NCBI GenBank assembly: GCA_963823655.1
Contig: CAWGMK010000006.1
Span: 64,001 to 128,000 of the forward strand
From: an uncultured Bacillota bacterium
GTDB lineage: Bacteria; Bacillota; DTU025; MWDF01
DNA: 64,000 bases
Direction: 5' to 3'
In this document: positions 13,656-63,883 of the stretch, one piece after another
How positions within the stretch are numbered: position 1 is the stretch's first letter
Layout: each line of letters opens with the position of its first letter
Notes under the pieces: model-generated
The model's input: only the letters and a program-made list of their open reading frames with translations
Database searches by the model: none
What the model was told of the DNA's origin: nothing
Made by a program: the position numbers and the translations under genes

Positions 13656-16600
13656 TTGAGTTCAAGAAGACTAGCAATCATAGTTTTAGCAGCCATATTG
13701 GCGTTTTCAACGGCAGTGGCTGCCGCTCCGCCGACAATCAACCCGGATGAGGCTCTGAAAGCACTAGGCAAGCCCATGCTTTCCGTGAAACCGGAAGAGG
13801 AGGAGCCCTCCTTAGTAATTGAGGAGGTCAACACGACCGGGGCCAAGGACTGGAGGCCGGGAGCGCTGATCATCAGGCTTGATTCGGCCGCATCGGTCTC
13901 TTCGCTAGGCGGCGGGTTCGGCCTTGCGATCTCAAAGCTTGGAGGTTCAATCGAGCGCAATCTGGACATGAAGAACATGGCAGAGGGCGCGATTGCTTCC
14001 AGCGATGCCACTCTGCACTTCGTCTTTGCAAAATTCTCGGAGGATGCCGACGTTTTTGCACTGGCCGAAGAAGTGGGGAAGATCCCGGGTGTCTTGTATG
14101 CTGAACCTGACTACAGGATGTACCCCGACGCGGTAGCCCTGCCTCCCACAGATCCGGGCTACACGAGCGGAAGACAGTATTATCTGAACAACACAGCCGT
14201 ACCATATTATTCGACCCTGTTCGGCACTGCCGGCTCCGACCTTAAGGCGCCCGCAGGCTGGGAATTTCGCCAATAATGACTTCGGCCTAGACTGCTCATC
14301 TGTAGTAGTCGGGGTCATCGACCAGGGCGTAGCATTCTGGCATGCGGACCTAATAAACAATATGTGGGTGAACGAGGAAGAGTTTGAGGGCACCGAGGGC
14401 GTCGACGATGATGGCAATGGCTACATGGACGACGTCTACGGTTATAACTTCTATCATGACCTCGGCATCAACGATTATGCCAGCGGCTATTATCCTGCGA
14501 TGGATATGACTACCACGGAACCCACGTGGCAGGTACCATATCGGCCGAATGGAACGGCTGGGGCTCGGCAGGAACTGCACGCAATGCGAAGATAATGAGC
14601 CTTAAGTTCCTCGATGAGGGAGGCGGCTGGACTTCCGACGCCATAAGAGCCCTTGAGTATGCAGTTCTCATGGGAGCCGACCTTACAAGCAACAGCTGGG
14701 GCGGCGGCGAACCTGAGCAGTCGATGTCGGATGCTATTAAGAGCAAGCGGCATGCTGTTCGTCGCTGCTGCAGGAAACGACGGCAACAACAATGACTTCT
14801 TCGGTCACTATCCGTCGTCATATGCCAATCCGTCCTCGCCGTACTATTGCGAGAATATAATAACGGTTGCTGCGACGGACGCTAATGACAATCTAGTGTC
14901 GTTCTCCAACTACGGCCCGGAATCAGTACACGTAGCCGCTGCAGGCTTCTATGTGTATGCTTCCTACCCGTATTTCGACGGAGTAAATTACTTGTCATAT
15001 AAACGCATGGATGTCAGGCACATCAATGGCAACACCGCAGGTAAGCGCTGTAGCGGCGATGCTGATAGCACAGGACAAGATGCATGCAGCATACTCCTTC
15101 CCGCAGTATGACGACCCTGATCCCTCAGGGGACTGGGACACCGTCAAAGAGATAGTGCTTAACAGCGCCGAAAAAAAGGCACAGCTGGAAGGCTATGTGA
15201 GCACCGGCGGCAGGGTCAGCATGTACGGCGCGCTGACGATGCAAAGACTGGCAAGCGCATCGGCAATAACTGTCACCCCAGCGTTCAGCAATGAAATCCC
15301 GGTCAACATCAACGTTAGCGTAACTATTGACGGGGGCGACGCCAAAGCATCTGATATGCCCGGTATCGAGCACAGGTGGGAGTTGTGCTGGGCTGACGCC
15401 TTCTATCAGAGGGAGTCCACCGGCATCACGGCGACAGGCGTCATCCGCCACGCTTGTCGCAACGGAATACGGCTACTATGAGGTCAAGTATGAGATGTAT
15501 GACCTGGATCAATGATGTCGTCAATAACAACATCATATAAGCGGGTGATTATGGCACCGGAGGAAGCAGTCATTCTTGTCTTGGATGACCAGTGGTATGG
15601 CTACGAAGACATGTCATACATGGACTGGGCTGCGTTCTCCATTTACGGAGTACCGGTATTCTACAATAAGCCCGCCTATGGAAATCCCATATGACATACC
15701 CAATGTGGTATTCTGGACCACTACCTACACGACTAACGGCGTAATCAATGAAGAGGACGCACAGTGGTTGATCGGATTACCTAAAATACGGCGGAGGAAG
15801 GCTGCTGCTAGCAAGCTATGAGATGCTCAACATGATAGATGGCTATTACGGCGAGTCGGCTCTTTCGCAGGAGACGGCAGAAGAGCTGCTTGAGCTGTTG
15901 AAGGTCAAAGGATTACCTGACAGACTATACTTATGTTGAAGACAGGGACCCTGCCCCGTATGAGACGACGGTACCAGGTGGAAGGAGACAGCATAATCTG
16001 GGCCAATGAGCTGAGACTCGACCTCGAATATGACGCTGTGGGATCCGCGATATGCCCAACTACGGAGACGTCGTAACCGAATTCGGCCGGCGCATATCCG
16101 ATACTGCTGTCCCAATACGGCGGAGACAATCGACGAGCCCGAAAGAGCAGCCTCGGACTAAGCTATGCGGGCGATGACTACAGGCTGATATTCCTAGGCG
16201 CGCCGTTGGAAGCCATGCAGGGAACGGACTTACTTGTATGGCATTACTGGAGGGCCTTGGAGCGGCGATATATACAACTTCTTTGACTTCATGTGGTACA
16301 GCTGGGAATTCCTGATTGGCGAGGGTCCGGACAGGCTGGTCGGCTGGCTGGAGAACCCTGTTGCTGGAGGCACATATTCGAATCCTATTGATGTTGAGTG
16401 GGACATAATGGATTCCGAAGAGACCATACATGAGGCCAAGCTGTGGTACCGCAGTGAAGCCAACCCCTACTGGGAGCCCATAACCCTGTTCGTACCCGGT
16501 GAGGAATTCGGCTACATGTGGGACTTCGCGCACACCCTGGTGGGTGACGGCTATGAAGTGAAGCTCGAAGTAACCGACGCTAATGACCATACCCGCGTCG

Positions 16601-16905
16601 CTTACGACTTCGAAGCGCCGTTTGCGATTTGGCCCGCAAGCCCGACAGAAGGCGCGCGCACAGGCGTAGACAGCGAAAACGAAGAGATCATATTCTACGT
16701 CAACGCACTCAAACCGGGCACATTGTATGTGTATGACCTATCAGGAATACTCCTCTTCTCCGAGGAAGTCCCTGAGGGCATGAGCGAGATCACCTGGGAT
16801 ATGATGGTTAACGGATTGAGGATAGCCCGCGGCCTGTACGCGTTCAGGGTCGTCTACAATGACGGCAGCGCGTCCAAGACCGGTCGCTTCCTCGTCAACT
16901 TCTAG
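13656..16905 (+). CDS. Large secreted S8 subtilase (about 1050-1100 aa) with C-terminal T9SS type A/FlgD-Ig-like sorting domain; broken by about 10 or more frameshifts
   Basis: Signal peptide and prodomain (YAEPDY). Catalytic motifs across frames: VGVIDQGV, YHGTHVAGTI, AAGND, SGTSMATPQV. C-terminus GTLYVYDLSGILLF...ITWD...NGLRIARGLYAFRV...KTGRFLVNF. Confidence 0.8.
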
Positions 16906-16923
16906 AAAGGGAGGTGCGAAAGA

Positions 16924-17865
16924 ATGAACAGAAGGGCGACAATTATCCTCGTCATGGCCGTAATAATGGCCTTGGCAGCGGCAAGTTCTAGCATTGCCGC
17001 CGAGTACTGGGGCACCCTGCCCTCCCTTAAGCTGGGATACTCGGTCAGATCTGAAGGGATGGGAGGAGCCGGGCTGGCGCTTGCCGGAGACCTAAGTCTG
17101 TCAGGCCAGAACCCCGCAGCTCTGCCTACGACGGAATTCTTCACGCTATACACGACCTACACCTCGGTATATGCGACCAACGGAAAGTTCAGCGCAGTCT
17201 TCGGCGGCAAGTATGTAGGGCTGGCAGTTGATGTGCTGAGCGCCTCCGATGTCGAAATTACAGATCCTTACGGCGCGGTCATAGGCGTTGGCGATTATTA
17301 TGAAGGAAACGTCGCGCTTATGGGCGGCTACAGCTTCAAGCTGGGCACCAAGGGCTTCGTGGCCGTAGGCCTCGCAGCCAAGGGCCTAGGGCAGTTCATG
17401 CCGGAAGTCGAAGGCTACGGCGTGGCGCTCGACTTCGGCGCGCTCGCAAGGTACAACCTGGGCAAGGTCGGCCTGAGCGCGGCGTTCGTGCTCAGAAACG
17501 CTCCCGGCATCATCTGGTACCCCGGATCCGAAGAGCCGATGCCGGTACAAGCCTACCCTGAGCAGGGTGCAGAGATGGTCTTCCTGGAGATGGCTTACGC
17601 CGGCGGCGTAGCAGTGCATCTTCTGGATGACAAACTGGTAGTCGCAGTCGACGTCGACTCAGCAAGGGGCCTGTCAGGCGGCGTGGAGGGCAAGATATCC
17701 GTGCTAAGCCTCAGGGCCGGAGTCAACTGGTGGATGGACAGGCCGCTGTCGTTCTCCGCAGGTGCGGGCCTTGACCTCTGGAAGGGCTCAAGGTTCGACT
17801 TCTCCTATACCTATCTCCAGCACATGCCGGACAGGTACAGAGTAGGTCTGCTTATCGAGTTCTAG
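16924..17865 (+). CDS. PorV/PorQ (UPF0164, FadL-like) outer-membrane beta-barrel
   Basis: Signal peptide; N-terminal LKLGYSVRSEGMGGAGLALAGD..SGQNPAAL matches the PorV/FadL pattern aR..gMG..gvA...D.......NPA; amphipathic strands; terminal Phe (LLIEF). Confidence 0.8.
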   Translation: MNRRATIILVMAVIMALAAASSSIAAEYWGTLPSLKLGYSVRSEGMGGAGLALAGDLSLSGQNPAALPTTEFFTLYTTYTSVYATNGKFSAVFGGKYVGLAVDVLSASDVEITDPYGAVIGVGDYYEGNVALMGGYSFKLGTKGFVAVGLAAKGLGQFMPEVEGYGVALDFGALARYNLGKVGLSAAFVLRNAPGIIWYPGSEEPMPVQAYPEQGAEMVFLEMAYAGGVAVHLLDDKLVVAVDVDSARGLSGGVEGKISVLSLRAGVNWWMDRPLSFSAGAGLDLWKGSRFDFSYTYLQHMPDRYRVGLLIEF

Positions 17866-17885
17866 AACTAGGCAATGGACAGAGG

Positions 17886-17925
17886 GTGCGGGATTCTGAG
17901 AAGAGTCCCGCACTTTTCAATTTTT
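17886..17925 (+). terminator. Intrinsic terminator ending the subtilase-porV unit
   Basis: GTGCGGGATTCT-GAGA-AGAGTCCCGCAC-TTTT. Confidence 0.75.
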
Positions 17926-18012: not shown

Positions 18013-18612
18013 GTGAAGAGAAAATTCGTAGCAGCTATTGTAGTTTCGCTCCTTCTTGCCATATCGGCCTCGGCTTCGGCCACAGACGTGATATTCGGGC
18101 TGTCCTACAGGGCGTTCAAGCCCGCATTGGAGGCCTTCGACATCAGCAGCGATTTCAAGGCCAACTTGGGCCTTAAGCTGGACATATCCAAGATATTCGA
18201 CGCTAACCTGAGCCTTAAGCTGGGAATGGTCAGAGAAGACATGCTCAACCCCGCATCTGCCCCGAAATTCGGGATAGCAGGCGAGCTGGACGGTCTGTTC
18301 TCCCTGTTGAACTGGCAGATCAGCGAGGATTATCTACTTAAGATCGGACCTTTGGCCGGAATAAGCTTCGCCAACGGGCCAGCCTACTTCCCGGATGGAA
18401 ACATAGACCTCTTCCTCGGCGGTTTCGTCCGTTTCGACTTCCTGAAGAGCTTCAGCATGGATGCCAAAGCTTCGTACGGCTTCATGAGCAAGGGGCTCCT
18501 GGCAGGCTTCGGAATGGAATATGCCTTCACGCCGAACTGGTTCTTAAGAGGGGATTTCGAGTACATGAGAAAGAACGGCTTCTTCAGCATATCCGGAGGT
18601 TACAGATTCTAG
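18013..18612 (+). CDS. Small outer-membrane beta-barrel protein
   Basis: SPase I signal (ASASA), alternating hydrophobic strands, BamA-type beta-signal FSISGGYRF. Confidence 0.7.
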   Translation: MKRKFVAAIVVSLLLAISASASATDVIFGLSYRAFKPALEAFDISSDFKANLGLKLDISKIFDANLSLKLGMVREDMLNPASAPKFGIAGELDGLFSLLNWQISEDYLLKIGPLAGISFANGPAYFPDGNIDLFLGGFVRFDFLKSFSMDAKASYGFMSKGLLAGFGMEYAFTPNWFLRGDFEYMRKNGFFSISGGYRF

Positions 18613-18634: not shown

Positions 18635-20251
18635 GTGTTTTACATGCCAAAAGTAAGATTGCGCCTGGAAGCCCTTGTAGTGGGGCTGGTAATGGTAATT
18701 TCAGTCTTGTCGGCATGCACGCCAGCATTGGCATTCAAACCCGTCGAGTTCGTATGGCCCGTGCAAGGGAGCGCCCAATTGATGATCTCCGGGAACACAT
18801 ACGACATAACATTTGCCGAAACGATAAATTTCACCGCGAAAACCGACATGGTCCTGAATTTGAACTTAGGTAAATGGCGTCACAACCTTACAATGAGCCT
18901 CATGCTTAAGAATGGAAACCTTCCTGTTGAGGACGTTCTGAAGATAGGCAAGTTCGGCTTCTATCTGGACAGGTGGCGCCTGGTCAGCACCTACGAGAAA
19001 ATGACGATAACCGCAGGGGATACGGCAGTACCAAACGTATTCGCGAAGTACATGTCGGGCTCTTCCCTCTATGGCGCATCCATTATGGTGGGTGGAAACC
19101 TTCCAGGAGCGATGAAGGATACGAGCTTCACGCTTTCCGGAATGGGCGGCAAGAACAGCACCGGAAGGGGCATAAGCTCCACCACAATGGACGTGGCCGG
19201 TCTTGCGCTTGAGCTTCAATACCTGAAGTCGCTTAAGTTCAACCTGGGGTTCACGGAAGGCCTAAGGCAGGACACCGATATTAAGATAGGTTCAGCCATG
19301 CTGGCGTACAGCTTCGAAGCGAACAACATATCTTTGGATGCGGCGGTCTCGCACGAGGCGTTTTCGAGCAAGCTGGGCTGGTACGGCGCATTGAACTACT
19401 CGGGCAGCTTCCAAAGGAAGGTGGCCTTGTCATCAAGCCTTTCGTATACAAGCAATGATTTCCGGAAAATCAGCGCAGCTTCGCCTGAAACGGGAGGAGC
19501 GCTTAGTTCCGCGGCAAATCTGACATTCTACCTTACGCCGACATGGAAGGGCAGCGAGACTCTGGGTTTGAAAGCCGGGTATTCAAAGGACAACCTGGAA
19601 GGGACAAAGGAGAGTTCCCTTCAGACTTTCGATGCCGGCATCTCCTATTCCGCAAGCGGCTTCGCCCCGTCAACCTCGGCTTCAGCATCCTATTCCTTCA
19701 CGGCAGTATCCAACGATTCACTGCCCAAGACGGTGAACAATACCAGGCATGCACTGGATTTAAGGTATTCCCATCAGGCAATCATTAACAAATCCAGGCT
19801 TTCGGTAAACATGTCAGTTGTCCCCTCGTTGTTGTTAAACAAGGTCAAGGACGATGTATCATTCGCCATGACTAACTCCCTTTCGGCGTCTCTCAACATC
19901 AACAGGACAACGATTACCGGCAAGGCAGAAATGAGGGTAAATGCCAACAGGCTCTCCACAACGCTCTCATTCGCCCCTTCGCTTGACCTTGCCGTAAGCA
20001 CAAGCTTCCAGAAGCCGGCGATTTCTCTAAGCGCCGCGCTCAAGCTTAGCAACAGCAGCACATTGAATTACTCTACGTCTACGATCAGCAGCGATGTCAG
20101 CTATCTTGACGTGTTGCCTAGGGTGACATGGAGGATATCGGACAGCTTCAGCTTATATGGCAACTATTCCGGCAAACTGAGATTCGGAGCATCAGTTGTG
20201 ACGCCGACGTGGACTGACACTTACGGCTTCGGCATAAGCTTTAGGCTCTAG
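18635..20251 (+). CDS. Large outer-membrane beta-barrel protein, function unknown
   Basis: Signal peptide; Ser/Thr/Gly/Tyr-rich amphipathic strands throughout; ends YGFGISFRL. Confidence 0.65.
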   Translation: MFYMPKVRLRLEALVVGLVMVISVLSACTPALAFKPVEFVWPVQGSAQLMISGNTYDITFAETINFTAKTDMVLNLNLGKWRHNLTMSLMLKNGNLPVEDVLKIGKFGFYLDRWRLVSTYEKMTITAGDTAVPNVFAKYMSGSSLYGASIMVGGNLPGAMKDTSFTLSGMGGKNSTGRGISSTTMDVAGLALELQYLKSLKFNLGFTEGLRQDTDIKIGSAMLAYSFEANNISLDAAVSHEAFSSKLGWYGALNYSGSFQRKVALSSSLSYTSNDFRKISAASPETGGALSSAANLTFYLTPTWKGSETLGLKAGYSKDNLEGTKESSLQTFDAGISYSASGFAPSTSASASYSFTAVSNDSLPKTVNNTRHALDLRYSHQAIINKSRLSVNMSVVPSLLLNKVKDDVSFAMTNSLSASLNINRTTITGKAEMRVNANRLSTTLSFAPSLDLAVSTSFQKPAISLSAALKLSNSSTLNYSTSTISSDVSYLDVLPRVTWRISDSFSLYGNYSGKLRFGASVVTPTWTDTYGFGISFRL

Positions 20252-31624: not shown

Positions 31625-33118
31625 ATGGTGCTCGTGAATTTGTACGAAGGGCTTCTGAGGATAATGAACCTGCAATCGATAGCGGCGATGACTGCAGGAG
31701 TTGTAGTGGGCATACTTGCCGGTGCCATGCCGGGCATCTCCCCATCCATGGGAGTTGCTCTGATGGTACCCTTCACTTTCAAAATGGATTCATCAACAGC
31801 CCTGATTTTCCTAGTGTCCATATATATCGCTGCAAACTACGGAGGGTCAATTACAGCAGTTACCATTAATACGCCGGGTACTCCGTCGGCCGTTGTTACG
31901 TCCTTCGACGGTTATCCGTTGGCACAGCAGGGCAAGGCAGGATAGGGCTTGGCGTTTCCCTGATCGCCTCAACTGTTGGAGGCCTTATAGGGGCAGTCAT
32001 CCTAATCGCTTTTGCGGCGCCTCTTGCAAATGTTGCCTTAAAGTTCTGGGCGGCCGAGTATTTCTCGCTTGCCGTGCTGGGATTATCAGCCACAGCAAGC
32101 CTTGGGGGGAGCAATTGGCTTAAGGTCCTGGTATCTACAGTGCTTGGGCTGATTATATGTACGGTCGGAATGGACCCAATACTAGGCGTCAAACGCTTCA
32201 ACTTCGGCTATGTGCCACTTTATGACGGATTCACTTTCATCCCAGCACTTATCGGCCTTTTAGCCATAAGTGAGGTTTTCAGCGAAATCGAGAAGTTCGA
32301 GTTCGTTACCTTGAACGTACAGGCGGCCCTTAAGACCAAATGGCCCTCTGTAAGGGATTATTGGAAATTGAAGTGGGCAATACTCCGTGCTTCAATAATT
32401 GGCACAATAGTCGGAATCTTCCCCGGAGCCGGAGCTACCATAGCCACTTTCATCGCATATGACGTAGAGAAGCGCTTCAGCAAGACGCCAGAGAAATTCG
32501 GAACCGGTATGCCCGAGGGCGTCTGCGCTGCCGAGGCATCTAACAGCGCATCCGTCGGAGGCGCACTAGTCCCGCTGCTTACCCTTGGCATTCCAGGCAG
32601 CGCAACTGCAGCTGTGCTCATAGGGGCGCTTATGATACACGACCTGCAACCCGGGCCAGAGCTTTTCACTAAGCATCCCGACATTGTATATAATCTTTTC
32701 AGCTCAATGTTTGTCGCAAATTTCATAATGCTGATCATCGGCCTTGTTGGAAGCAGGCTCTGGGTTAATGTAACTAGGGTTAGGAAAGAGGTCCTCTTCC
32801 CGTTCATCTTCAGTTTCGCCCTAATTGGCAGCTATGCGGTAAGATCATCCATGGTAGATGTAGGTATATGCATCGGTTTTGGCACATTGGGTTGGATACT
32901 TGAGGAAATTCAAGTTCCCTCTTCCGCCTATGGTATTGGGCATGGTGCTCGGCACGATGGCCGAAGTGAATCTGCGAAGGGCGATAATGATAGGCGGCAC
33001 TTGGGCCGTTTTCCAGCGCCCTATTAGCCTGACTCTTCTTATACTCTCCGGGCTTTCATTCGGTGTGCCGATATACAATGAAATGAAGAAAAGAAGGAAG
33101 GCAAAGTCGCAGGTTTAA
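31625..33118 (+). CDS. tctA: TTT large permease; frameshifts near 31940 and 32900
   Basis: GAMPGIS, NTPGTPS, FDGYPLAQQG, PGAGATIA, VPLLTLGIPGS across three ORFs. Confidence 0.88.
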
Positions 33119-36794: not shown

Positions 36795-38222
36795 ATGTCC
36801 CAGGACACAGACCAAAAGAATGATTTTCGGGCCTTGCCTTCGGTAGGCTCGATTTTAGAATCTGATGAAGGCGCTTTGCTCTCGTCAGAATATGGGGGAA
36901 AGTCTGCAGCTGGCGCCATCAAAAGCGCCATCGCTTCCATCCGCGATTCCGGAAAACTCAGCGGGGATAAAGCCGCCAATATGGAAGCTGCCCTCAAAAT
37001 TGCGGCAGACAGGCTCGCCGATAGGAAAGAGGGCCTAGTAAGCCTGATAAACGCGACCGGCATAGTGCTTCACACCAACTTGGGCCGCGCACCCCTTTCA
37101 AAAAGGGCAATTACAGCCGCGGTCCATGCCGCCACCGGCTATACGAATCTGGAATACGACCTTAAGAAGGGCGAAAGAGGCTCAAGGCAAGCTCATGTCG
37201 AAGGGCTGATTTCGAAGCTGGTAGGCTCCGAGGCTGCGATAGCTGTGAACAACAACGCCGCCGCCGTCTTGCTTTGCCTTGATGCCCTGGCAAAAGGCGG
37301 AAAAGTGGCGGTATCTAGAGGCGAGCTTGTGGAAATCGGGGGCTCGTTCAGGGTGCCCGAGATAATGGCATCGACAGGCGCTGTGTTGATGGAAGTGGGG
37401 ACTACCAACAGGACAAGGGCGTCCGACTTCGAAAGGGCCGCAGCGGAAGGGGCGGTTGCCATCCTCAAAGTACACCCTTCGAACTTCAAGATCACCGGCT
37501 TTGTATCGGAAGTTGGCGTCGCCGAGCTATCGGCAATCGCGAAAAAGCATTCGATACCGCTTATATACGATATCGGATCCGGCAGCGTGGTAGGCCTTGA
37601 GGCTTTAGGCGTGCCGCATGAGCCCATGCCTCAGGAGGCGATAAGAGACGGCGCGGACCTTGTTAGCTTCTCCGCCGATAAGCTTCTGGGCGGGCCACAA
37701 TGTGGGATAATCGCAGGCAGGGCTGACTTGGTGGCGAAAGTATCGAAATCGCCTCTTGCGAGAGCCTTCAGGGTGGACAAGATGCGCCTGGCCGCGCTGG
37801 CCGCGACGCTCAACCAATACCTTTCCCCGCAGGACTGGCGCGATGTGCCCGTCATGGCCATGCTGCATGAGACATATGAGCACCTGCTCGAGAGGGCTGC
37901 AGTGCTCGCCTCAACGATGAAAAGGGCATGCGAGGGGCATTCTTGCCTTGACGGCATCAATACTGAAATCGTCGATACCGAGGATGAGGTGGGCGGTGGC
38001 TCCATACCGGGGGCAAGCCTCAAAGGCGCCGGCGTGAATGTAAGCATGGAGGGTATAAAACCTGCCGACATTTCGGCCAGGCTTCGTGAAGGCTCCATGC
38101 CGGTCGTGGCCCTGGAAAGAGGCTCAGGGGTGCTTTTCGCCGTCCGCACAGTGGCCGATGAGCAGATAGGCGCCCTGGTTTCTGCAATAGTCGAATCCTT
38201 CCTTGCAGCTGTAAAGCGATGA
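36795..38222 (+). CDS. selA: L-seryl-tRNA(Sec) selenium transferase
   Basis: INATGIVLHTNLGRAPL, NNNAAAV, SRGELVEIGGSFR, FSADKLLGGPQ. Confidence 0.95.
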   Translation: MSQDTDQKNDFRALPSVGSILESDEGALLSSEYGGKSAAGAIKSAIASIRDSGKLSGDKAANMEAALKIAADRLADRKEGLVSLINATGIVLHTNLGRAPLSKRAITAAVHAATGYTNLEYDLKKGERGSRQAHVEGLISKLVGSEAAIAVNNNAAAVLLCLDALAKGGKVAVSRGELVEIGGSFRVPEIMASTGAVLMEVGTTNRTRASDFERAAAEGAVAILKVHPSNFKITGFVSEVGVAELSAIAKKHSIPLIYDIGSGSVVGLEALGVPHEPMPQEAIRDGADLVSFSADKLLGGPQCGIIAGRADLVAKVSKSPLARAFRVDKMRLAALAATLNQYLSPQDWRDVPVMAMLHETYEHLLERAAVLASTMKRACEGHSCLDGINTEIVDTEDEVGGGSIPGASLKGAGVNVSMEGIKPADISARLREGSMPVVALERGSGVLFAVRTVADEQIGALVSAIVESFLAAVKR

Positions 38223-40140
38223 AGCATCTGATTCTAGGCACAGCCGGCCACGTGGACCACGGCAAGACGACGCTGGTCAAAGCGCTCACAGGCGTGGACA
38301 CCGACCGGCTTCCCGAAGAGAAGGCCAGGGGGATGACCATAGAGCTGGGCTTCACCCACCTTGAGCTGCCTTCGGGCATCACGCTGGGCCTTGTGGACAT
38401 GCCAGGGCACGAGAAGTTCATAAAGCATATGGCGGCGGGCGCCGGCGGCGTTGACATTGCTCTGCTCGTGGTTGCCGCCGATGAGGGAATAATGCGGCAG
38501 ACCCAGGAGCATCTGGAGATATTGGAGCTGCTGGGCATAGACAAGGCAGTAGTGGCTATAACCAAATCGGACCTCGCAGACGCCGAATGGCTTGACATGG
38601 TGCAAGAGGAGATCGCCTCAAGGCTTGCCGGCACACGGCTTGCGGGCTCTTCAATAGTCTCGGTCTCCGCGATTACGGGCTCTGGCATCGACGAGCTTGT
38701 TACAGAGCTCGACAAGGCCGCCGCCAACGCAGCCGAAAGGGACAAAGAACCTGCATCCAGGATTTATATAGACAGGGTGTTTACTATGACGGGGCACGGT
38801 ACGGTCATCACCGGCACCCTGCTTGGAGGAGCCATCGAGCAGGAGGACAAGCTCCAGCTTCTGCCATCCGGCTCCATCGTCAGGGTGAAGCATATAGAAG
38901 TGCACGATAAGCCCGCGCTGAAGGCGGAAAGGGGCCAGAGGGCGGCTCTAACGTCTCAGGGGCCAACAAGGATGAGATCGAAAGGGGCATGGCGCTGGCA
39001 AGCCCCGGCTGGCTTGAGTCGACCGGGCTGATAGATGTAGAAGCAGTGCTGGCAGAAGGCGCTGAGCCGGTCCTGCACAACGAAAGGCTTCGCCTGCATA
39101 TAGGCACATCCGAGGTAATATGCAGGGCAAGGGTCCCCAAGGACCAGCCTGAGGGCCGGATGTTCATGCAGCTTGAAACCGAGGAGCCCGTATTCCCTGC
39201 AAGAGGAGACAGATTCATACTTAGGACCTACTCCCCTTCCGTTACCGTCGCCGGAGGCAGGGTGCTTTGCGCCAAGCCCCCAAGGCGGAAAGTGGGCTCC
39301 GAAAAGGAAACGGCATCGCTTGTCAGGCTCGCCTCGAAAGATCGAGATGAGTCCCTCAATGAGCTGATCAGGACGGTTTCGCGGGCCGAATGCGGCTCCG
39401 ATTGCATATGGCCTGTGGAAGAAACGCTGCTAAAAAGAAGCGCCTATATGCTCCCTGAGGATTTCGATGCCGCATTTAAGGCAGGCGGCAATGATGGCGC
39501 GGCAGTAATGCTTGAGCTAGAGGGAAGCACGTACTTCTTGGATCGAGGGTCTTACATCGACGCCCTTTCTGGCTTAAAAAAGATGCTCTCTGATTTCCAC
39601 GCGCAATTTCCTCTGAGAAAGGGCATGCCAAAGGAGGAGATCAGGCAGAAACTGATGCCCAAAGCGGACAAAAAGCAGGCAATGGCCCTATTCGCCAGGA
39701 TATCATCGGCCGGGGAAGTTAGATCGTCCGTCGATCTTCTATGGCTGCCAGGCCACAGCGCAGTACTGACCGAAGAGCAGAGGAAAACGGCGGATGCGAT
39801 GGAGGCTGCCTTCAGAAAGGATCTCTTCACGCCGCCGGATCTTGTGGGTGCGATCTCCGTTGCCGGCAAAGGCGCATCCCAGATAGCGGATTACCTGGTG
39901 GGGGAGGGCGTACTTGTAAAGGTCTCATCGGAGGTGGCATTCCATAAGGACGCGGTGGCCGCGGCCCTAAAAGAGGCTTCGAAATTCGAGGGCCAGTTTA
40001 CGGCAGCGATGTTGAGGGATGCTCTTGGCACCTCGAGGAAATATGCGATTGCGATGCTGGAATGGATGGACTCTCAGGAATATACCCAAAGAAGCGGCGA
40101 CAACAGGACGCTAAGGCCTCAGTACAAGAGCGGAAAATAG
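38219..40140 (+). CDS. selB: Sec-specific elongation factor; frameshift near 38948
   Basis: GTAGHVDHGKT, DMPGHEKF, TKSD; C-terminal winged helix LRDALGTSRKYAIAMLEWMD in ORF 38989-40140. Confidence 0.92.
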
Positions 40141-46311: not shown

Positions 46312-47128
46312 ATGGAGACTGGGCTCAGCTTTCGCATAATCAACTACCCTTTCATGGGCACCGATATAAATACCGAGAGGCTAATGCTCATGGCCAAGCT
46401 CTGCTATACCCCTATCGGCTCCGCGAGCATGGCGGGGATGGTATACGGAGAGGATAACGGCATATCAGATGAGGAGGCCGGCCGCTTCGTAAGGGGCCTC
46501 ATATCTTCAGGGCACATGGGGGCGCTCGAGCATTGGTACACGAGCTTCGCGGTAGAGGGCTACTCAAGGGTATCCAGCCAGCAGAACGACAGGCACAGGA
46601 TAATGAAGATGTTCAAGGACCACGGCTGCGCAGTCGGCTATTTCAGCGATCCTGAGCAGGGCTCCGCCGATACTTCCCAGTTGCAGCAATCGCAAAGATA
46701 CGTCAAGGAGCAGGACTTCAACTTCGTGGTCCCTCCCAGCATAAAGGCCAATCCGGAGGCTTATGAGAGGTTCTTGAAGCTTCAGAAGGCAGGTTCAGGC
46801 CTTCCAGGATTACGGCCTCAACGAGGCGGGCTTACCTGCCGAGGATGTGAGGTTCGCCCTGACAAACGCCACCGAGACCAGGTTCGTGATCACAACGAAC
46901 GCAAGGCAGCTCAGGCACATGTTCAACTTGAGATGCTGCGAAAGGGCACAGTGGGAGATCAGGGCGCTTTTCAAGGGCCTGCTGGCAGAATACAGGAAGA
47001 TCGCACCCAATATTTTCTGGCGTACGGGGGCCTCATGCGAGGAGCTGGGCTACTGCCCCGAAGGCAGCTTGTCCTGCGGCAAAGCGCCCACCTTGAAGAA
47101 ACTCAGGGAGATGGCGGGCATCAAATAA
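46312..47128 (+). CDS. thyX: FAD-dependent thymidylate synthase; frameshift near 46790
   Basis: GHMGALEH, RHR...QQSQRYV; shifted frame gives EDVRFAL, NARQLRH, LRCCERAQWEIR. Confidence 0.88.
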
Positions 47129-56692: not shown

Positions 56693-58302
56693 ATGAGCAG
56701 AACGAGCATCTTTATTACAAGAAGGCTGATTTCGGGCGGCCTTGTGGCAGCCCTTCTTTTCCTGATTCTCCTTGGGCAGGCGCTGGGCGCAACCATCTAC
56801 TGGGCAGTTGCAGCGTCCCATACTGATTTCTCGAAAGCCTCGGACGAGGCGGCTAGAATCGGGGCCGAGACTGGCCTCGCCTGTTCGACAATGGAGGCGG
56901 ATGTAAAGGGAATCAGATATTACCGCGCCGTTGCAGGGCCTTTCGACTCGAAGGCGATTGCTGAGGCTGCGAGGGACGCCTTGAGGTCCAAAGGCTGGGC
57001 GGATGCATGGTTGCTGACCGATACGATTGCGGCACAGAATGCGCCTGAGCCCTCGACCTATGCGGACCCGGAGGCCGTCTTGCCTTTTGAAAGGACAATC
57101 AAAGTGGGCCTTTCGTGGCTTTCGGGGGCGAGCTTCCTTACGGGCACCGACGGTAAGCTTATAGTCTCTGGAACGCTACTTGAGACTGGCGAGGCGGCGA
57201 TAGTCGAAATCGCCAATGATCGCGAAAATCATGTCTGACGGCGATGGCATCAGAATCAAAAAAGACGATGCGGACGTCGGGGTGCTATTCGCGTCCCCGG
57301 TGATAATGAGCAGCAGCTCCGGGGCCCTATGGCTCTCGGACGCATACAAGGTATACAAGGGCGGGATAGAAGTGGCAAGAAGGGCGGGCGCCCCAACTCT
57401 TGCAGTGTCCAACGTAATAGATGTAGAGGATTACCTGCTATCGGTGCTCCCATCCGAAATAGGGGGCAGCTCGCCGATAGAGGCATATAAGGCGCAGGCG
57501 GTCGTCGCCAGGACGGAAGCTCTCTCTTCGGCGGGTCGTCACGCGGACACTGGCTGGGACCTTTGCGACAGCACACATTGCCAGGTATTCAAGGGATTGT
57601 ACGGACAATCGGCAAATGTTGAGATTGCAAGGGCGGTCAAAGCTACCGAGGGGGAAGTGCTCACTTATGAGGGCGAGATGGTCAAGACGGCGAGCTTCCA
57701 TTCGGCGTGCGGCGGCTGGACCGAAACCTGCGAGCAGATATGGGGCTCGAAGCTTGCCCACCTCACCAATGTGGCTGACAACCTGGTTCAACCCCAGATG
57801 CCGGATCTAAGGGACGAGACGGTGCTAAGGAAATATATCGAGACTGAGAACAAGAATGACCTCTGCTACAAGGCCTATGGCTACAGATGGAGCGCCGAAA
57901 TCGAGATGAAGGACGTCCTGAACAGGCTGTCCGTTGCCATTGCCGAGGGCTTGGCCCCTGTGGGCGCTGCCGGGCAGGGCAGCAACAAACCGGCAGTTCT
58001 CGTGAGGACGGACAGGGGAGCCGCGTTGCAGATAAGCGTGCCATCAAACGGCCAGGAATATATAATAAAGGGTGAGCTGAACGTAAGGAAGCTGCTTGGT
58101 GGGGCGACCGTTATAAAAAGCGGCGTCTTCGTAATACTTCCCGGCAGCAAGGAAGGCTCAATGAAGATAATCGGTGCAGGTTATGGCCATGGCGTCGGAA
58201 TGTGCCAGGAAGGCGCGAAGGCAATGGCGAAGCTGGGCAAGGACTATAAGGCAGATTCTCGCCCATTATTACAGGGGAAGCGCAATCGGCGGGCTCTACT
58301 AG
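56693..58302 (+). CDS. SPOR-domain plus SpoIID/LytB peptidoglycan lytic protein; frameshifts near 57220 and 58253
   Basis: SPOR-like YRAVAGPFDSKAIAE..RDALR; SpoIID motifs EDYLLSVLPSE, KAQAVVART, LCDSTHCQVF, GYGHGVGMCQ; shifted end ILAHYYRG. Confidence 0.85.
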
Positions 58303-59854: not shown

Positions 59855-62800
59855 ATGAGGCGCTTGCTTCCGCTTACTATCGTTATTGCCCTGCTGTTAA
59901 CAATTCCCAACGCCGCTTCGGCCAAGCTCACGCTAACAGGCGAGAGCATATGGAGGCTCGGCTACGGAAGCAGGTATTATTCCACATACGGCTGGAAGCT
60001 CGGGCTTGGCGGTTTCCTTGCCTCTCAGGAGATCAGGCTGGATGTTACCGGCGAGATCATCGACGGCCTGTTCCTGGAAGCCCATATCGACAACACCAAA
60101 GGGGATCTATTCCAGCAGCTGGTCGTAAGCCTGGACTGGAGAGGGCTATGGGCAAAAGGCGGCAATATCGTATATGAGCCTGCCAACGCGCTGCTTAGCA
60201 GGCCGAAAACTGCGATCATGGGCATTTCGGCAGGTTTTAAAGGCGAGAAGTTCGCGGCCTTCGCAATCGGCGGCATATCGTCCGGCAGCAAAGGCAGCAA
60301 AGTCTTCAAAGGCGCAACGGCGCAGGAGTCCATAGAATATGTGTCGGGCGGCCCGTACCTGCCTTCCAGGGGCAAATCCGGCCTTCAGGGTGCGCTAGAA
60401 GGCTTATGGCAGTCGGCGACCGGCGCCGAGTTCGACCCCGCCTTCGACAAAGGAGGAGCCCTCTTTGCAGAAAGCTCCTCGTACGGTGAGCTTTCGGACT
60501 TCCTCGGAGCAAATTCGCTGGGATTCCTGGTCAATGGGGCGGCGAACCCGGACGGGACGCTAACTGCCGGGGAATTTGTAAACGGCGCCGGCGTCGACGG
60601 CTTGTCGGGTGTAAGCGGAGCATATATCGTCCTGAAGGAGCTGCCCCAGGCAATCATAAGGGGTATGCTTGTTGATCTAATAAGGCAATACAACGAGAAT
60701 TTAGGGCTTTCCGGGGGCGCGGCAGCCAAGTATCCGTACATCGCAGGAAGCCAGACCGATACCGAGTTCCTTTCCAGCCTGCTTGAAGGCTGGGTAAGCT
60801 TTGCGACCGCTTCCAAGGCAACAGGGGAAGTCATCGCATCGGCCCCATTCACGGCCTTTTCCAGGGGGCTCATCTATCCGCTCGGGTTCACAGACGTGCT
60901 TGCGGACACTCTCACGGTGACTGCGGTAGCTCTGACAGGCACGCAGATACCCCTTATCGCGGTCCCGGGCGCCAACTGGGTCTGCTATGAGGACAGGGGC
61001 TATATCGAAATGGTCCTTCCGGTTGATTTCACCGCCACCTACTCATATATCAGGGCAGCCTTCAGCTACAGGCTGGCACAGGGGCTCTATTTCCTGGGCG
61101 GCGGCATAATCAGGGGAAGCCTGTCTGTAAGGCTCGACGGCAAGCTTCTATATGCGGGGACCGATTACGAGATAGATTACGAGACCGGCATACTTATGCT
61201 CATGGTAACTGCTTCAGACGGGGCAGAGGGGCTGCTGGAGGTTGAATACGAGTTCGCAAAGCCGGGGTCGAAGGCATGGATTGCGGCCGTCGGCGCCTCA
61301 TATTCGCCGGCTAATGATCTGAAGATATCTTTAGAGTACAGCTACGGCTCGGATGCACCATACCTTGCCGAGGACGAGACGACGGTCTCCAGGGAAAGAA
61401 GCTATGAGCATCTGATTGCCGCCTGGGCGGATTGGCGCCTGGCAGATGGGCTGAAACTGTCCGCAGGCGCGTCATTTAGCGCTTCGGTTTTCCCGGGCGA
61501 CTCGTCGCTGAGGGATAACGACTACAACAGGATAAGGTATATCGAAGCACTCGAGGACAACGCAGGGGGCATATGGTGGGCGTTCGCCCATTCGGCAGGT
61601 GTTAGGGTCCTCTCCCCGTACGGTGGAGGATGGTCCGATCTGAGGATGCCCGGCTCATTTGCAGGGGTCCCGGTAAACGGCGCATCACACGACTCGGGCA
61701 TATGGTATTTCGCGACTGACGCGGGGCTTGCCATGCTAGATGCCGACTATATCGGATACGGCGAGGGCTTTGCCGATGTGGTATCGCTTTGGAAGACGGC
61801 AGGGACCAAGGACGGCCTTCCCAGCCGCCTGATTTCGTCAGTCTCAATTAGCATGGGCTCGCTTTTTGCGGGGACTCCGGTAGGACTAGTCGAAGGCCAG
61901 CTGGACCTTGAAGGTCCCTGGACGCTTCACAGGGGCTCAGAGCATCCTGAACTTGGAGACGGCGTTATCTCAGGGCTTGCTCCAATTGCCTCCGGATTGC
62001 TTATCTCCTGCGGTGATTCGATTGCCTATTACGACGGGCTTGTCTTCCAGCAGATATTAGCCGAAGGGGCTCAATCTTTGAAATCGGCCCAGCTGGATAG
62101 CGGCTTGTCGGCGGTCGCTGCCACAGAGAACGGCGCAATTGTAATCGGACCGGCACTCGAAATTGAAAGGATCGGCTCAGGCAGGCATCTCACATCGGCG
62201 GCCGGCTCGGGCGTCTTCGTATTCTATACCTCTGAAGACGGGCTCTTCGCCTATGATCTGGACGGCGAAATAGAAGTCGCGCTGCATTCGGGCTCGGCGA
62301 TGGAGGCCGTCGGCACTGACGGCATCGATATATACGCGGGCGGCATGGCTGACGAGCTTTACGCCATAACTCTGCTCAGGCTCGACTACCCGGCAGGCGA
62401 GATACAGGAGATCGGGCAGCTCGAACACGGCATAAACGGCAGGGACAGGGCCCATTACCTAATAAAGGACCCGTCTGAGAACACTGCAATCGGCGCCGGC
62501 GGCTACATCTCACTTGGATACGATTCCTCGGCATTCGACGCTGAGGCTGTCCTTAAGGCCAGGGGGGCGGGAAGCCTGGCCGGCATGGGGCCGGGTAAGG
62601 CGGATTCTGCTTCTGCGTCCTTGAAGCTCGTATGGAAGCCGACGGGGACCCTTTCGGTCAATTTCCTGGAAATCTTGGAATTGAATAAGCTCTTCAGTTA
62701 CGTCAAAACAGAGGAGCCGATGGTGCTTTCCAACACAGTGCAAGCTGGCCTTGGCTGGAACGGGCCCGTCACGCTTAACCTGCTTACCAGCTATATAGTG

Positions 62801-63883
62801 AGCAAGGGCTTCGGAGAATTCGCCCTGCCATTGAACCAGACTGTGAGCGGCAGCGCCAATCTGCAGTACAGTATAGGCCCGTTGAGGCTTGCCGGCTCAC
62901 TAAGCGCCTCATACAGGCTTGCCGAAGGTTTCGATCCCTATGCCTCGGCAGGGGCGACGGCTGCGCTCTATTTGCAGGCAGGAAAGAATACGTCGATTAG
63001 CCTAAGCTATGGTGAACCCAAACCGTTCGGATCCCTGCTTGCGCCGTCCGGCAATTACAGGTCGCTTGCAGGCAACATACGATATTCGGCATACATGACC
63101 TACGGCAGCCTTACGGCATCTGCCAGGGGAAGCTACAAGTGGGACGTCAGGAACGTCGCGGATACCGCGGATTTAAGCGCAAGCCTCATCTATGCTGCAA
63201 GGCAGATAAAGCTGTTCGGCGCAAGCTTCATTCCCAGGACCGAGCTGACCCTCTCCTACCTGATGCCATTGGGGGCGGACAGCAGGATATCGGCCTTTAC
63301 GAAGCTGTCGGCAGGTACTAGCATCGGAATCTTCGGCATGGACGCAAGCTATTGGCACAAACTGACCTATATGATCGAATCCGGAAGGCTGACCAACGCA
63401 GGCGAGGCGTCGATTACGGGCTATCTCAGCAAGGCCGGCTGGAAGCTCAGGCCCTCATTGCAGCTGGGGGCGGCTTATACTCTGGAAACTCCGAACATGG
63501 GGGAGACGGCGGGTACTTGGAAGGCAAGCGCGAAGTTTTCCCTGTCCAGCGCGGGCACCGTTCCCAACCTGGCGTCGGCGAGCTACGCATACAGCAGCTT
63601 AAAAGGCGGCAGGCACGATATCGGCCTGTCCGATTCATTTAGTTTCAGCATGCTGGAGGGAAGGCTCGGCTTCGGCGCTGGGGTAAACGCCAATATGGGG
63701 CTTCTGCCACTTAGCCTCGCCTCATCCTCATACAAGGCGGCAATTAACGCCAGCATAAGCTACAAGTTCGACAAGAGCTGGTCGGGAAGCCTGCTGGGCG
63801 AAGTCGGGCTGGGTTCATCTGCCCTTTATGATGATCCTAAGCTGCTGTACGGCTTTGAGTTGAAAATTACACTGAAGTTCTAG
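59855..63883 (+). CDS. SprA-like large outer-membrane beta-barrel with inserted beta-propeller
   Basis: Signal peptide; SprA-like segments SQEIRLDVTGEI..LEAHID, GNIVYEPANALLS..IMGISAGF and GSLSVRLDGKLLYAGTDYEIDYETGILML; propeller blades WYFATDAGL and DGLPSRLISSV..LFAGTPVGL; long amphipathic strand series ending LKITLKF. Confidence 0.65.
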   Translation: MRRLLPLTIVIALLLTIPNAASAKLTLTGESIWRLGYGSRYYSTYGWKLGLGGFLASQEIRLDVTGEIIDGLFLEAHIDNTKGDLFQQLVVSLDWRGLWAKGGNIVYEPANALLSRPKTAIMGISAGFKGEKFAAFAIGGISSGSKGSKVFKGATAQESIEYVSGGPYLPSRGKSGLQGALEGLWQSATGAEFDPAFDKGGALFAESSSYGELSDFLGANSLGFLVNGAANPDGTLTAGEFVNGAGVDGLSGVSGAYIVLKELPQAIIRGMLVDLIRQYNENLGLSGGAAAKYPYIAGSQTDTEFLSSLLEGWVSFATASKATGEVIASAPFTAFSRGLIYPLGFTDVLADTLTVTAVALTGTQIPLIAVPGANWVCYEDRGYIEMVLPVDFTATYSYIRAAFSYRLAQGLYFLGGGIIRGSLSVRLDGKLLYAGTDYEIDYETGILMLMVTASDGAEGLLEVEYEFAKPGSKAWIAAVGASYSPANDLKISLEYSYGSDAPYLAEDETTVSRERSYEHLIAAWADWRLADGLKLSAGASFSASVFPGDSSLRDNDYNRIRYIEALEDNAGGIWWAFAHSAGVRVLSPYGGGWSDLRMPGSFAGVPVNGASHDSGIWYFATDAGLAMLDADYIGYGEGFADVVSLWKTAGTKDGLPSRLISSVSISMGSLFAGTPVGLVEGQLDLEGPWTLHRGSEHPELGDGVISGLAPIASGLLISCGDSIAYYDGLVFQQILAEGAQSLKSAQLDSGLSAVAATENGAIVIGPALEIERIGSGRHLTSAAGSGVFVFYTSEDGLFAYDLDGEIEVALHSGSAMEAVGTDGIDIYAGGMADELYAITLLRLDYPAGEIQEIGQLEHGINGRDRAHYLIKDPSENTAIGAGGYISLGYDSSAFDAEAVLKARGAGSLAGMGPGKADSASASLKLVWKPTGTLSVNFLEILELNKLFSYVKTEEPMVLSNTVQAGLGWNGPVTLNLLTSYIVSKGFGEFALPLNQTVSGSANLQYSIGPLRLAGSLSASYRLAEGFDPYASAGATAALYLQAGKNTSISLSYGEPKPFGSLLAPSGNYRSLAGNIRYSAYMTYGSLTASARGSYKWDVRNVADTADLSASLIYAARQIKLFGASFIPRTELTLSYLMPLGADSRISAFTKLSAGTSIGIFGMDASYWHKLTYMIESGRLTNAGEASITGYLSKAGWKLRPSLQLGAAYTLETPNMGETAGTWKASAKFSLSSAGTVPNLASASYAYSSLKGGRHDIGLSDSFSFSMLEGRLGFGAGVNANMGLLPLSLASSSYKAAINASISYKFDKSWSGSLLGEVGLGSSALYDDPKLLYGFELKITLKF

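Follow-up and report, generated by a model that had tools for sequence, protein, structure and literature searches.

A gene pair encoding an S8 subtilase with a C-terminal sorting domain and, directly behind it, a PorV/PorQ-family outer-membrane β-barrel lies in a 64,000-nucleotide stretch (the window) of contig CAWGMK010000006.1 from an uncultured Bacillota bacterium (assembly GCA_963823655.1, designated G000 below). The pair probably constitutes a two-gene operon whose products work with a SprA-like pore encoded further along the window, the barrel serving as an anchor for the protease and the frameshifts in the subtilase gene being errors. The outer-membrane core of the Bacteroidota type IX secretion system (T9SS) consists of SprA/Sov, PorV and cargo with a type A C-terminal domain (CTD), as known from F. 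johnsoniae (PDB 6H3I, 8GL6), and all three part types have homologues here. What profile searches, structural models and comparison with related genomes show is that the three parts are homologues or family members of the known components, that their genes are syntenic and that cargo and barrel genes obey a pairing rule. The features concerned are the following, with positions in window coordinates.

13656-16905, plus strand: gene for an S8 subtilase pre-pro-enzyme with a C-terminal sorting domain, carrying about 13 single-base frameshifts in this assembly (open reading frame (ORF) lists, frameshift-aware alignment, Pfam).
13659-13727, plus strand: predicted Sec signal peptide (SSRRLAIIVLAAILAFSTAVAAA), read off the translation by eye.
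14305-15037, plus strand: S8 catalytic core, its motifs in different frames in this assembly.
14305-14331, 14514-14537, 14764-14784 and 15017-15037, plus strand: catalytic Asp, His, Asn and Ser motifs, in this order.
16633-16902, plus strand: T9SS type-A-like CTD of about 90 residues in an unbroken frame (TIGR04183 and PF18962 family matches).
16906-16923, plus strand: 18-nucleotide spacer with a GGGAGG ribosome-binding site (sequence).
16924-17865, plus strand: PorV/PorQ-family outer-membrane β-barrel of 313 residues, signal peptide and terminal Phe present (NF033709, profile against PDB, model).
17882-17917, plus strand: intrinsic-terminator-like hairpin (16-bp stem) ahead of a T run (sequence).
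59855-63883, plus strand: shortened SprA/Sov-like outer-membrane protein of 1342 residues, propeller-like in its middle domain, signal peptide and terminal Phe present (profiles, model, synteny).

The tail forms the extreme C-terminus of the cargo and carries, within 16633-16902, the motifs YDLSGIL, WDMMVNGLRIARGLY and KTGRFLV, the type A pattern already recognised in the initial annotation of this DNA. Its TIGR04183 match stops 8 residues short of the stop codon, and the other end of the protein has an N-terminal hydrophobic signal, recognised from the sequence. TIGR04183 is matched at E ≤ 0.1 by each of the 13 aligned tails (best E 5.5e-10); eight of them match PF18962 (Por_Secre_tail) and 12 match FlgD_ig, while the type B model TIGR04131 yields weak matches in only four at the same threshold (E 0.091 for the window tail). 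The window tail aligns over its full length with the cargo tails of sister genomes, sharing the columns FY, LYVYD..G, W and G.Y with them. By these family matches it is a diverged type A CTD.

The barrel ORF is intact and begins exactly 18 nucleotides after the TAG stop codon of the cargo (16903-16905). In a set of 13 barrels compared with NCBIfam, PorV_fam is matched by every member (best E 1.1e-35), PorQ by 12, PorV2 by eight and PorV by eight, and none matches the PorP/SprF models at E ≤ 0.01. The PorV/PorQ models are the only NCBIfam families that all the barrels have in common. The window barrel itself matches PorV_fam (NF033709) with E 6.7e-15 and has no match in Pfam. A profile built from the 13 barrels gives a single significant match in PDB, the PorV chain of F. 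johnsoniae (6h3i_F, E 5.4e-7). The AlphaFold model of the barrel has a predicted local distance difference test score (pLDDT) of 76.6 and a predicted template-modelling score (pTM) of 0.73. In a Foldseek search with this model, PorV chains rank first (8gl6_F) and third (6h3i_F) with template-modelling (TM) scores of 0.63-0.64, and FadL, TodX and TbuX come behind. By sequence family, the barrel is a PorV/PorQ member and not a plain FadL channel, in agreement with its earlier description as PorV-like.

In G000, profile searches of the genome return one PorV-family gene and one CTD, and the two are adjacent. Because there is one of each, a barrel of its own and a shared barrel are indistinguishable within this genome. 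Each of six congeners (among them G001, G002, G003 and G006) carries one barrel, and in all four with enough contig an intact subtilase lies directly upstream. Five sister genomes from a neighbouring family (G012, G010, G015, G007 and G009) were searched with profiles of the tail and the barrel, a strong barrel being one of at least 179 bits. They contain 27 tails and 25 strong barrels, two of which begin at a contig end; for all of the remaining 23, a tail ends 18-189 nucleotides upstream on the same strand. In G012 alone, all eight barrels are paired, including those of four tandem cassettes. The expectation that each PorV paralogue follows a CTD gene is thus borne out in these genomes. The cargo-specific pairing proposed at first is supported by the sister genomes, but the single barrel and single CTD of G000 cannot speak for it.

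The arrangement is also kept in 19 of 20 Bacillota-type loci from wider genome contigs, which partly overlap the same genomes; the exception begins at a contig end. Over 24 unique pairs, CTD and barrel identities co-vary with a Mantel r of 0.93, a value reached in none of 2000 permutations, and the two are therefore inherited as a unit. The tandem cassettes of G012 (G012:C1:35671-75794) are spaced about 10-13 kb apart and encode cargo proteins of 1,900-3,200 residues. The near-identity of three of these barrels and tails is suggestive of recent duplication. In a metagenome-assembled genome of Candidatus Coatesbacteria and in an unclassified bin, a weak CTD match (20-28 bits) stands directly before a more distant PorV-like barrel; because of these loci, the arrangement may reach beyond Bacillota.

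The third part, the SprA-like gene at 59855-63883, was overlooked in the initial annotation. A phmmer search of PDB with the 1342-residue protein returns nothing significant and Pfam gives no match, so that SprA is reached by profiles only. A profile of 12 N-terminal regions has SprA (6h3i_A) as its sole significant match in PDB, with E 1.3e-5 over three collinear stretches, and alignment of the SprA-like profile with a Bacteroidota SprA by hhalign gives 92% probability and E 5.8e-7. Against 1.84 billion representatives, the same profile collects 1666 proteins at E ≤ 0.001, mostly 1300-1900 residues long; in an NCBIfam scan of 17 of these, 14 match TIGR04189 (SprA) and three exceed its cut-off (204-243 bits). 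The AlphaFold model of residues 1-1200 has a pLDDT of 86.4, and its top three Foldseek matches are SprA chains (E 2.8e-17 to 2.2e-14), with TM scores of only 0.37-0.39. A search with SprA_N (PF14349) gives no match anywhere, its controls being silent too, and the nearest clusters in the Protein Atlas are labelled 'hypothetical protein'. Profiles and model together identify the protein as a distant, shortened relative of SprA. Within it, residues of about 549-806 (window 61500-62270) match a β-propeller of the two-component-regulator type (3v9f, E 4.8e-8), and propeller matches in Foldseek agree.

Of 21 genomes in the order, 18 carry one copy of the SprA-like gene. In nine genomes (G007, G009, G010, G012, G015, G017, G018, G019 and G020), it lies directly 3' of a PorV-like barrel, and wherever the cargo is on the contig this barrel follows a subtilase of 1290-1390 residues with a CTD. 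The subtilase at the pore locus of G012 has the same architecture of Fervidolysin prodomain and S8 core as the window gene. In the genus of the window (G000, G001, G003), the pore gene is located about 42 kb from the pair. The SprA-like protein is a candidate translocon for the subtilase and its barrel.

The host had been assumed to belong to Bacteroidota, an assumption that the gene content contradicts. The window encodes SpoIID and a GerM-type protein, both on the same 397-kb contig, and Omp85/BamA is found above cut-off in G000, G001 and G012. Because of these genes, the host is assigned to the diderm, that is, two-membraned, Bacillota, in a lineage related to spore-formers.

The subtilase gene is interrupted in this assembly. 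ORF calling with translation table 11 splits 13656-16905 into at least ten pieces across all three forward frames. The pieces are collinear and comprise the signal peptide, a prodomain match, three Peptidase_S8 segments and a C-terminal piece. The three segments score 56.7, 46.3 and 27 bits against Peptidase_S8 in Pfam, all above the cut-off of 21.8, and the match to the Fervidolysin-type prodomain is weak (18.6 bits). With this family match and the Asp, His and Ser motifs located, the gene belongs to Peptidase S8 even though its frame is broken here. TTG at 13656, with an AAGGAG site 8 nucleotides upstream, is a plausible start codon. The C-terminal open piece (235 codons, frame 16198-16905) is unbroken and carries the tail. 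A frameshift-aware alignment with the intact 1091-residue orthologue of G002 reveals 13 frame changes and no in-frame stop inside the gene, 631 of 1062 aligned residues being identical. Intact orthologues of 1081-1136 residues are present in G001, G002, G003 and G006, each of them directly 5' of the barrel gene and neighbouring the same divergent 5'-nucleotidase gene. The two-gene operon described initially is upheld in its 18-nucleotide gap, ribosome-binding site, terminator-like hairpin and intact barrel, but the subtilase is not one ORF. An alternative genetic code was considered for the broken gene and ruled out, the pieces lying in three frames and the breaks being frame changes, not stops.

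The reading frame was checked against short-read contigs from four public runs of other samples, which align to the region at 90-99% identity to the window. One-base indels relative to the window occur in these contigs at 14260, 14503, 14741, 15663, 15907, 15978 and 16243, and contig indels fall within 20 nucleotides of seven of the 13 inferred frameshift sites. Four sites have no contig cover (around 15001, 15467, 15510 and 15777), and at two the contigs skip 81 nucleotides. Many of the indels are hosted by short homopolymers. The disruption extends to other genes: of 59 ORFs of the congener G001, 13 have counterparts on the same G000 contig that are split over two or three frames, and five of these 13 lie within the window. 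Because like indels recur in these neighbouring genes, a consensus error of the assembly is, with considerable confidence, the likelier cause of the subtilase frameshifts. The subtilase is therefore probably functional in the organism.

Four more genes of the window (31625-33109, 38219-40116, 46312-47125 and 56741-58253) occupy two frames relative to single ORFs in G001; indel errors probably account for this or, for some of the genes, a true difference in gene structure. Just past the end of the window, the V-type ATPase operon (G000:C6:128001-137000) is also heavily frame-broken, with subunit A in three pieces, B in two and I in two.

Several observations weigh against the proposed operon, its pore partner and the error reading. 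The window scores stay below the curated cut-offs for each part: the barrel reaches 55.5 bits against NF033709 (cut-off 90), the tail 16.7-19.4 bits against TIGR04183 (cut-off 23; E 7.6e-4 at 19.4), and the 1342-residue protein 16.2-18.6 bits over 35 residues against TIGR04189 (cut-off 200). The last of these proteins is also half the size of SprA (about 2400 residues), and in G000 its gene is unlinked to the cargo-barrel pair. Pairing is not obligatory either, as four of the 27 CTD matches in the sister genomes have no following barrel. These four comprise two metalloprotease-like proteins, one tail before a small outer-membrane protein (OMP) and one fragment. That CTD and barrel co-vary is a consequence of their joint inheritance and no proof of contact. 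No family-level match was obtained for the motor and hub proteins GldK (TIGR03525), GldL (TIGR03513) and GldM (TIGR03517, PF12081), the Bacteroidota control being silent too. The only motor-search match in G000 is GldK at 71.7 bits (cut-off 350), a generic domain that matches B. subtilis as well, again with a silent Bacteroidota control. The aligned short-read contigs, finally, are from relatives, and they show the relatives to be in frame, not this strain.

The two unpaired metalloprotease-like CTD proteins, which carry an HEFGH motif, are orthologous to each other (G015:C146 and G009:C19). The unpaired CTD cargo of G007 is followed by a small OMP similar to a 199-residue OMP encoded in the window.

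The proposed mechanism is modelled on the Bacteroidota T9SS, whose translocon has been solved (PMC10994853). Sec would export the fervidolysin-type S8 pro-enzyme to the periplasm, and within the SprA-like pore the CTD would dock onto loops of the PorV-like barrel. Cargo and barrel would then exit the pore sideways as a complex. The barrel would probably remain as the permanent surface anchor of its cargo, without recycling, because no PorU has been found, barrel genes come one per cargo gene in relatives, and the barrels have PorQ-like scores. The binding of CTD to barrel, the route of transport and the anchoring role are all drawn from this analogy.

The best-surviving alternative, itself unlikely, gives the barrel the role of a recycling shuttle as in Bacteroidota; co-encoding would then only balance expression, and the protease would be released, for example by self-cleavage. 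PorV is indeed the best match of the barrel in both structure and sequence, a passage of Lauber et al. 2024 (PMC10994853) describes how PorV moves type A cargo off the pore, and a protease could release itself by cleavage. A reusable carrier would however not need the one-to-one pairing of barrel and cargo genes seen in 23 of 23 cases. The 12 of 13 barrels that also match PorQ point the same way, since PorQ is an anchor according to a passage of Madej et al. 2021 (PMC8545088), in which PorQ anchors PorZ and PorV anchors PorU. A PorU that would remove the CTD was not found either: NF033707 has no match in G000, G001 and G012, and the Bacteroidota control scores 992 bits.

An improbable alternative to the error reading, slightly weaker than the shuttle, is that in this strain the subtilase gene has truly become a pseudogene, with the cargo decayed and the barrel and pore left over. 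The 13 frameshifts in 3.2 kb exceed those of any other gene compared, the subtilase is only 59% identical to that of G002 when the barrel reaches 84%, and contigs from other samples cannot speak for this strain. A decayed gene is difficult to reconcile, however, with the lack of any in-frame stop or large deletion, with catalytic motifs and a CTD that are all kept, and with intact barrel and pore genes. Frame changes are moreover seen in 13 of the 59 neighbouring genes compared, V-ATPase A and B among them. A third alternative, which takes the barrel for a common FadL-type substrate channel and the tail for a common Ig-like domain and denies their adjacency any functional meaning, is highly improbable and already largely refuted: FadL, TodX and TbuX are also strong fold matches, the tail also matches FlgD_ig and both window scores fall under the family cut-offs, but PorV/PorQ are the only NCBIfam families common to all barrels with PorV as the sole significant PDB sequence match, the adjacency holds in all 23 cases that could be assessed and across diverged paralogues, and the SprA-like gene is part of the locus in nine genomes.

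Two further genes follow the pair. Right after the terminator, window positions 18013-18612 encode the 199-residue small barrel of the OMP_b-brl type mentioned above, whose position is conserved in G001 and G003 but not in G002 and G006. Next, a 538-residue ORF (18635-20251) has no match in Pfam or NCBIfam and is missing at this position in G001 and G003.

Comparison with known systems brings out both likeness and departure. The Bacteroidota T9SS core shares the three part types, but the host here is a Bacillota bacterium, the pore has 1342 residues instead of about 2400, and each cargo gene has one barrel gene where Bacteroidota use one shared PorV; no PorU is found, and all window scores lie below the curated family cut-offs. 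In the PorZ-PorQ and PorU-PorV pairs of P. gingivalis, a CTD-bearing surface protein is likewise held by a barrel of the PorV/PorQ family, as a part of PMC8545088 describes, and 12 of 13 barrels here match PorQ. The cargo in the present case is a subtilase, the partners are co-encoded, and no attachment complex or link to anionic lipopolysaccharide (A-LPS) is indicated. The type B system SprB-SprF also places one carrier gene beside one cargo gene, and a passage of PMC10994853 describes type B cargo as anchored by its adjacent dedicated carrier. The tail here is by contrast type-A-like (TIGR04183 in 13 of 13, TIGR04131 in four of 13), and no barrel matches PorP/SprF. With the fervidolysin-type S8 subtilases, both the window pieces and the intact orthologues share a Fervidolysin_NPro-like prodomain and a Peptidase_S8 core, to which a T9SS-like CTD and a co-encoded carrier barrel are added here.

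In print, type IX secretion is confined to Bacteroidota and allies: a passage of Abby et al. 2016 (PMC4793230) reports T9SS from Bacteroidetes only, where 60 of 97 genomes have it. A full-text literature search, with subscription journals outside its scope, yielded no paper that describes PorV, SprA or T9SS from diderm Firmicutes. Homologues of the three parts of the T9SS outer-membrane core are accordingly described here in a phylum for which we found no earlier report of the system. The Bacillota layout is simpler, with a half-size pore, one carrier barrel per cargo and no sortase detected.

A broader reading is offered tentatively and with less than even confidence. The trio could be a self-contained, sortase-less and possibly motor-less system for outer-membrane secretion and display, native to diderm Bacillota and other phyla outside the Fibrobacteres-Chlorobi-Bacteroidetes (FCB) group, in which each cargo's own carrier stays behind as its anchor; the conserved subtilase could be the original cargo and at the same time the protease responsible for maturation. 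If this is true, the outer-membrane core of T9SS would by far predate the Bacteroidota system and be much more widely distributed.

In conclusion, the apparatus in its entirety seems to be devoted to one protease in the genus of the window, which therefore provides a very small natural test case for the mode of CTD recognition, for the possibility of a carrier doubling as an anchor and for that of a pore working without the known motor. The finding bears on the evolution of the outer membrane in Firmicutes and puts a compact surface-display module on offer.

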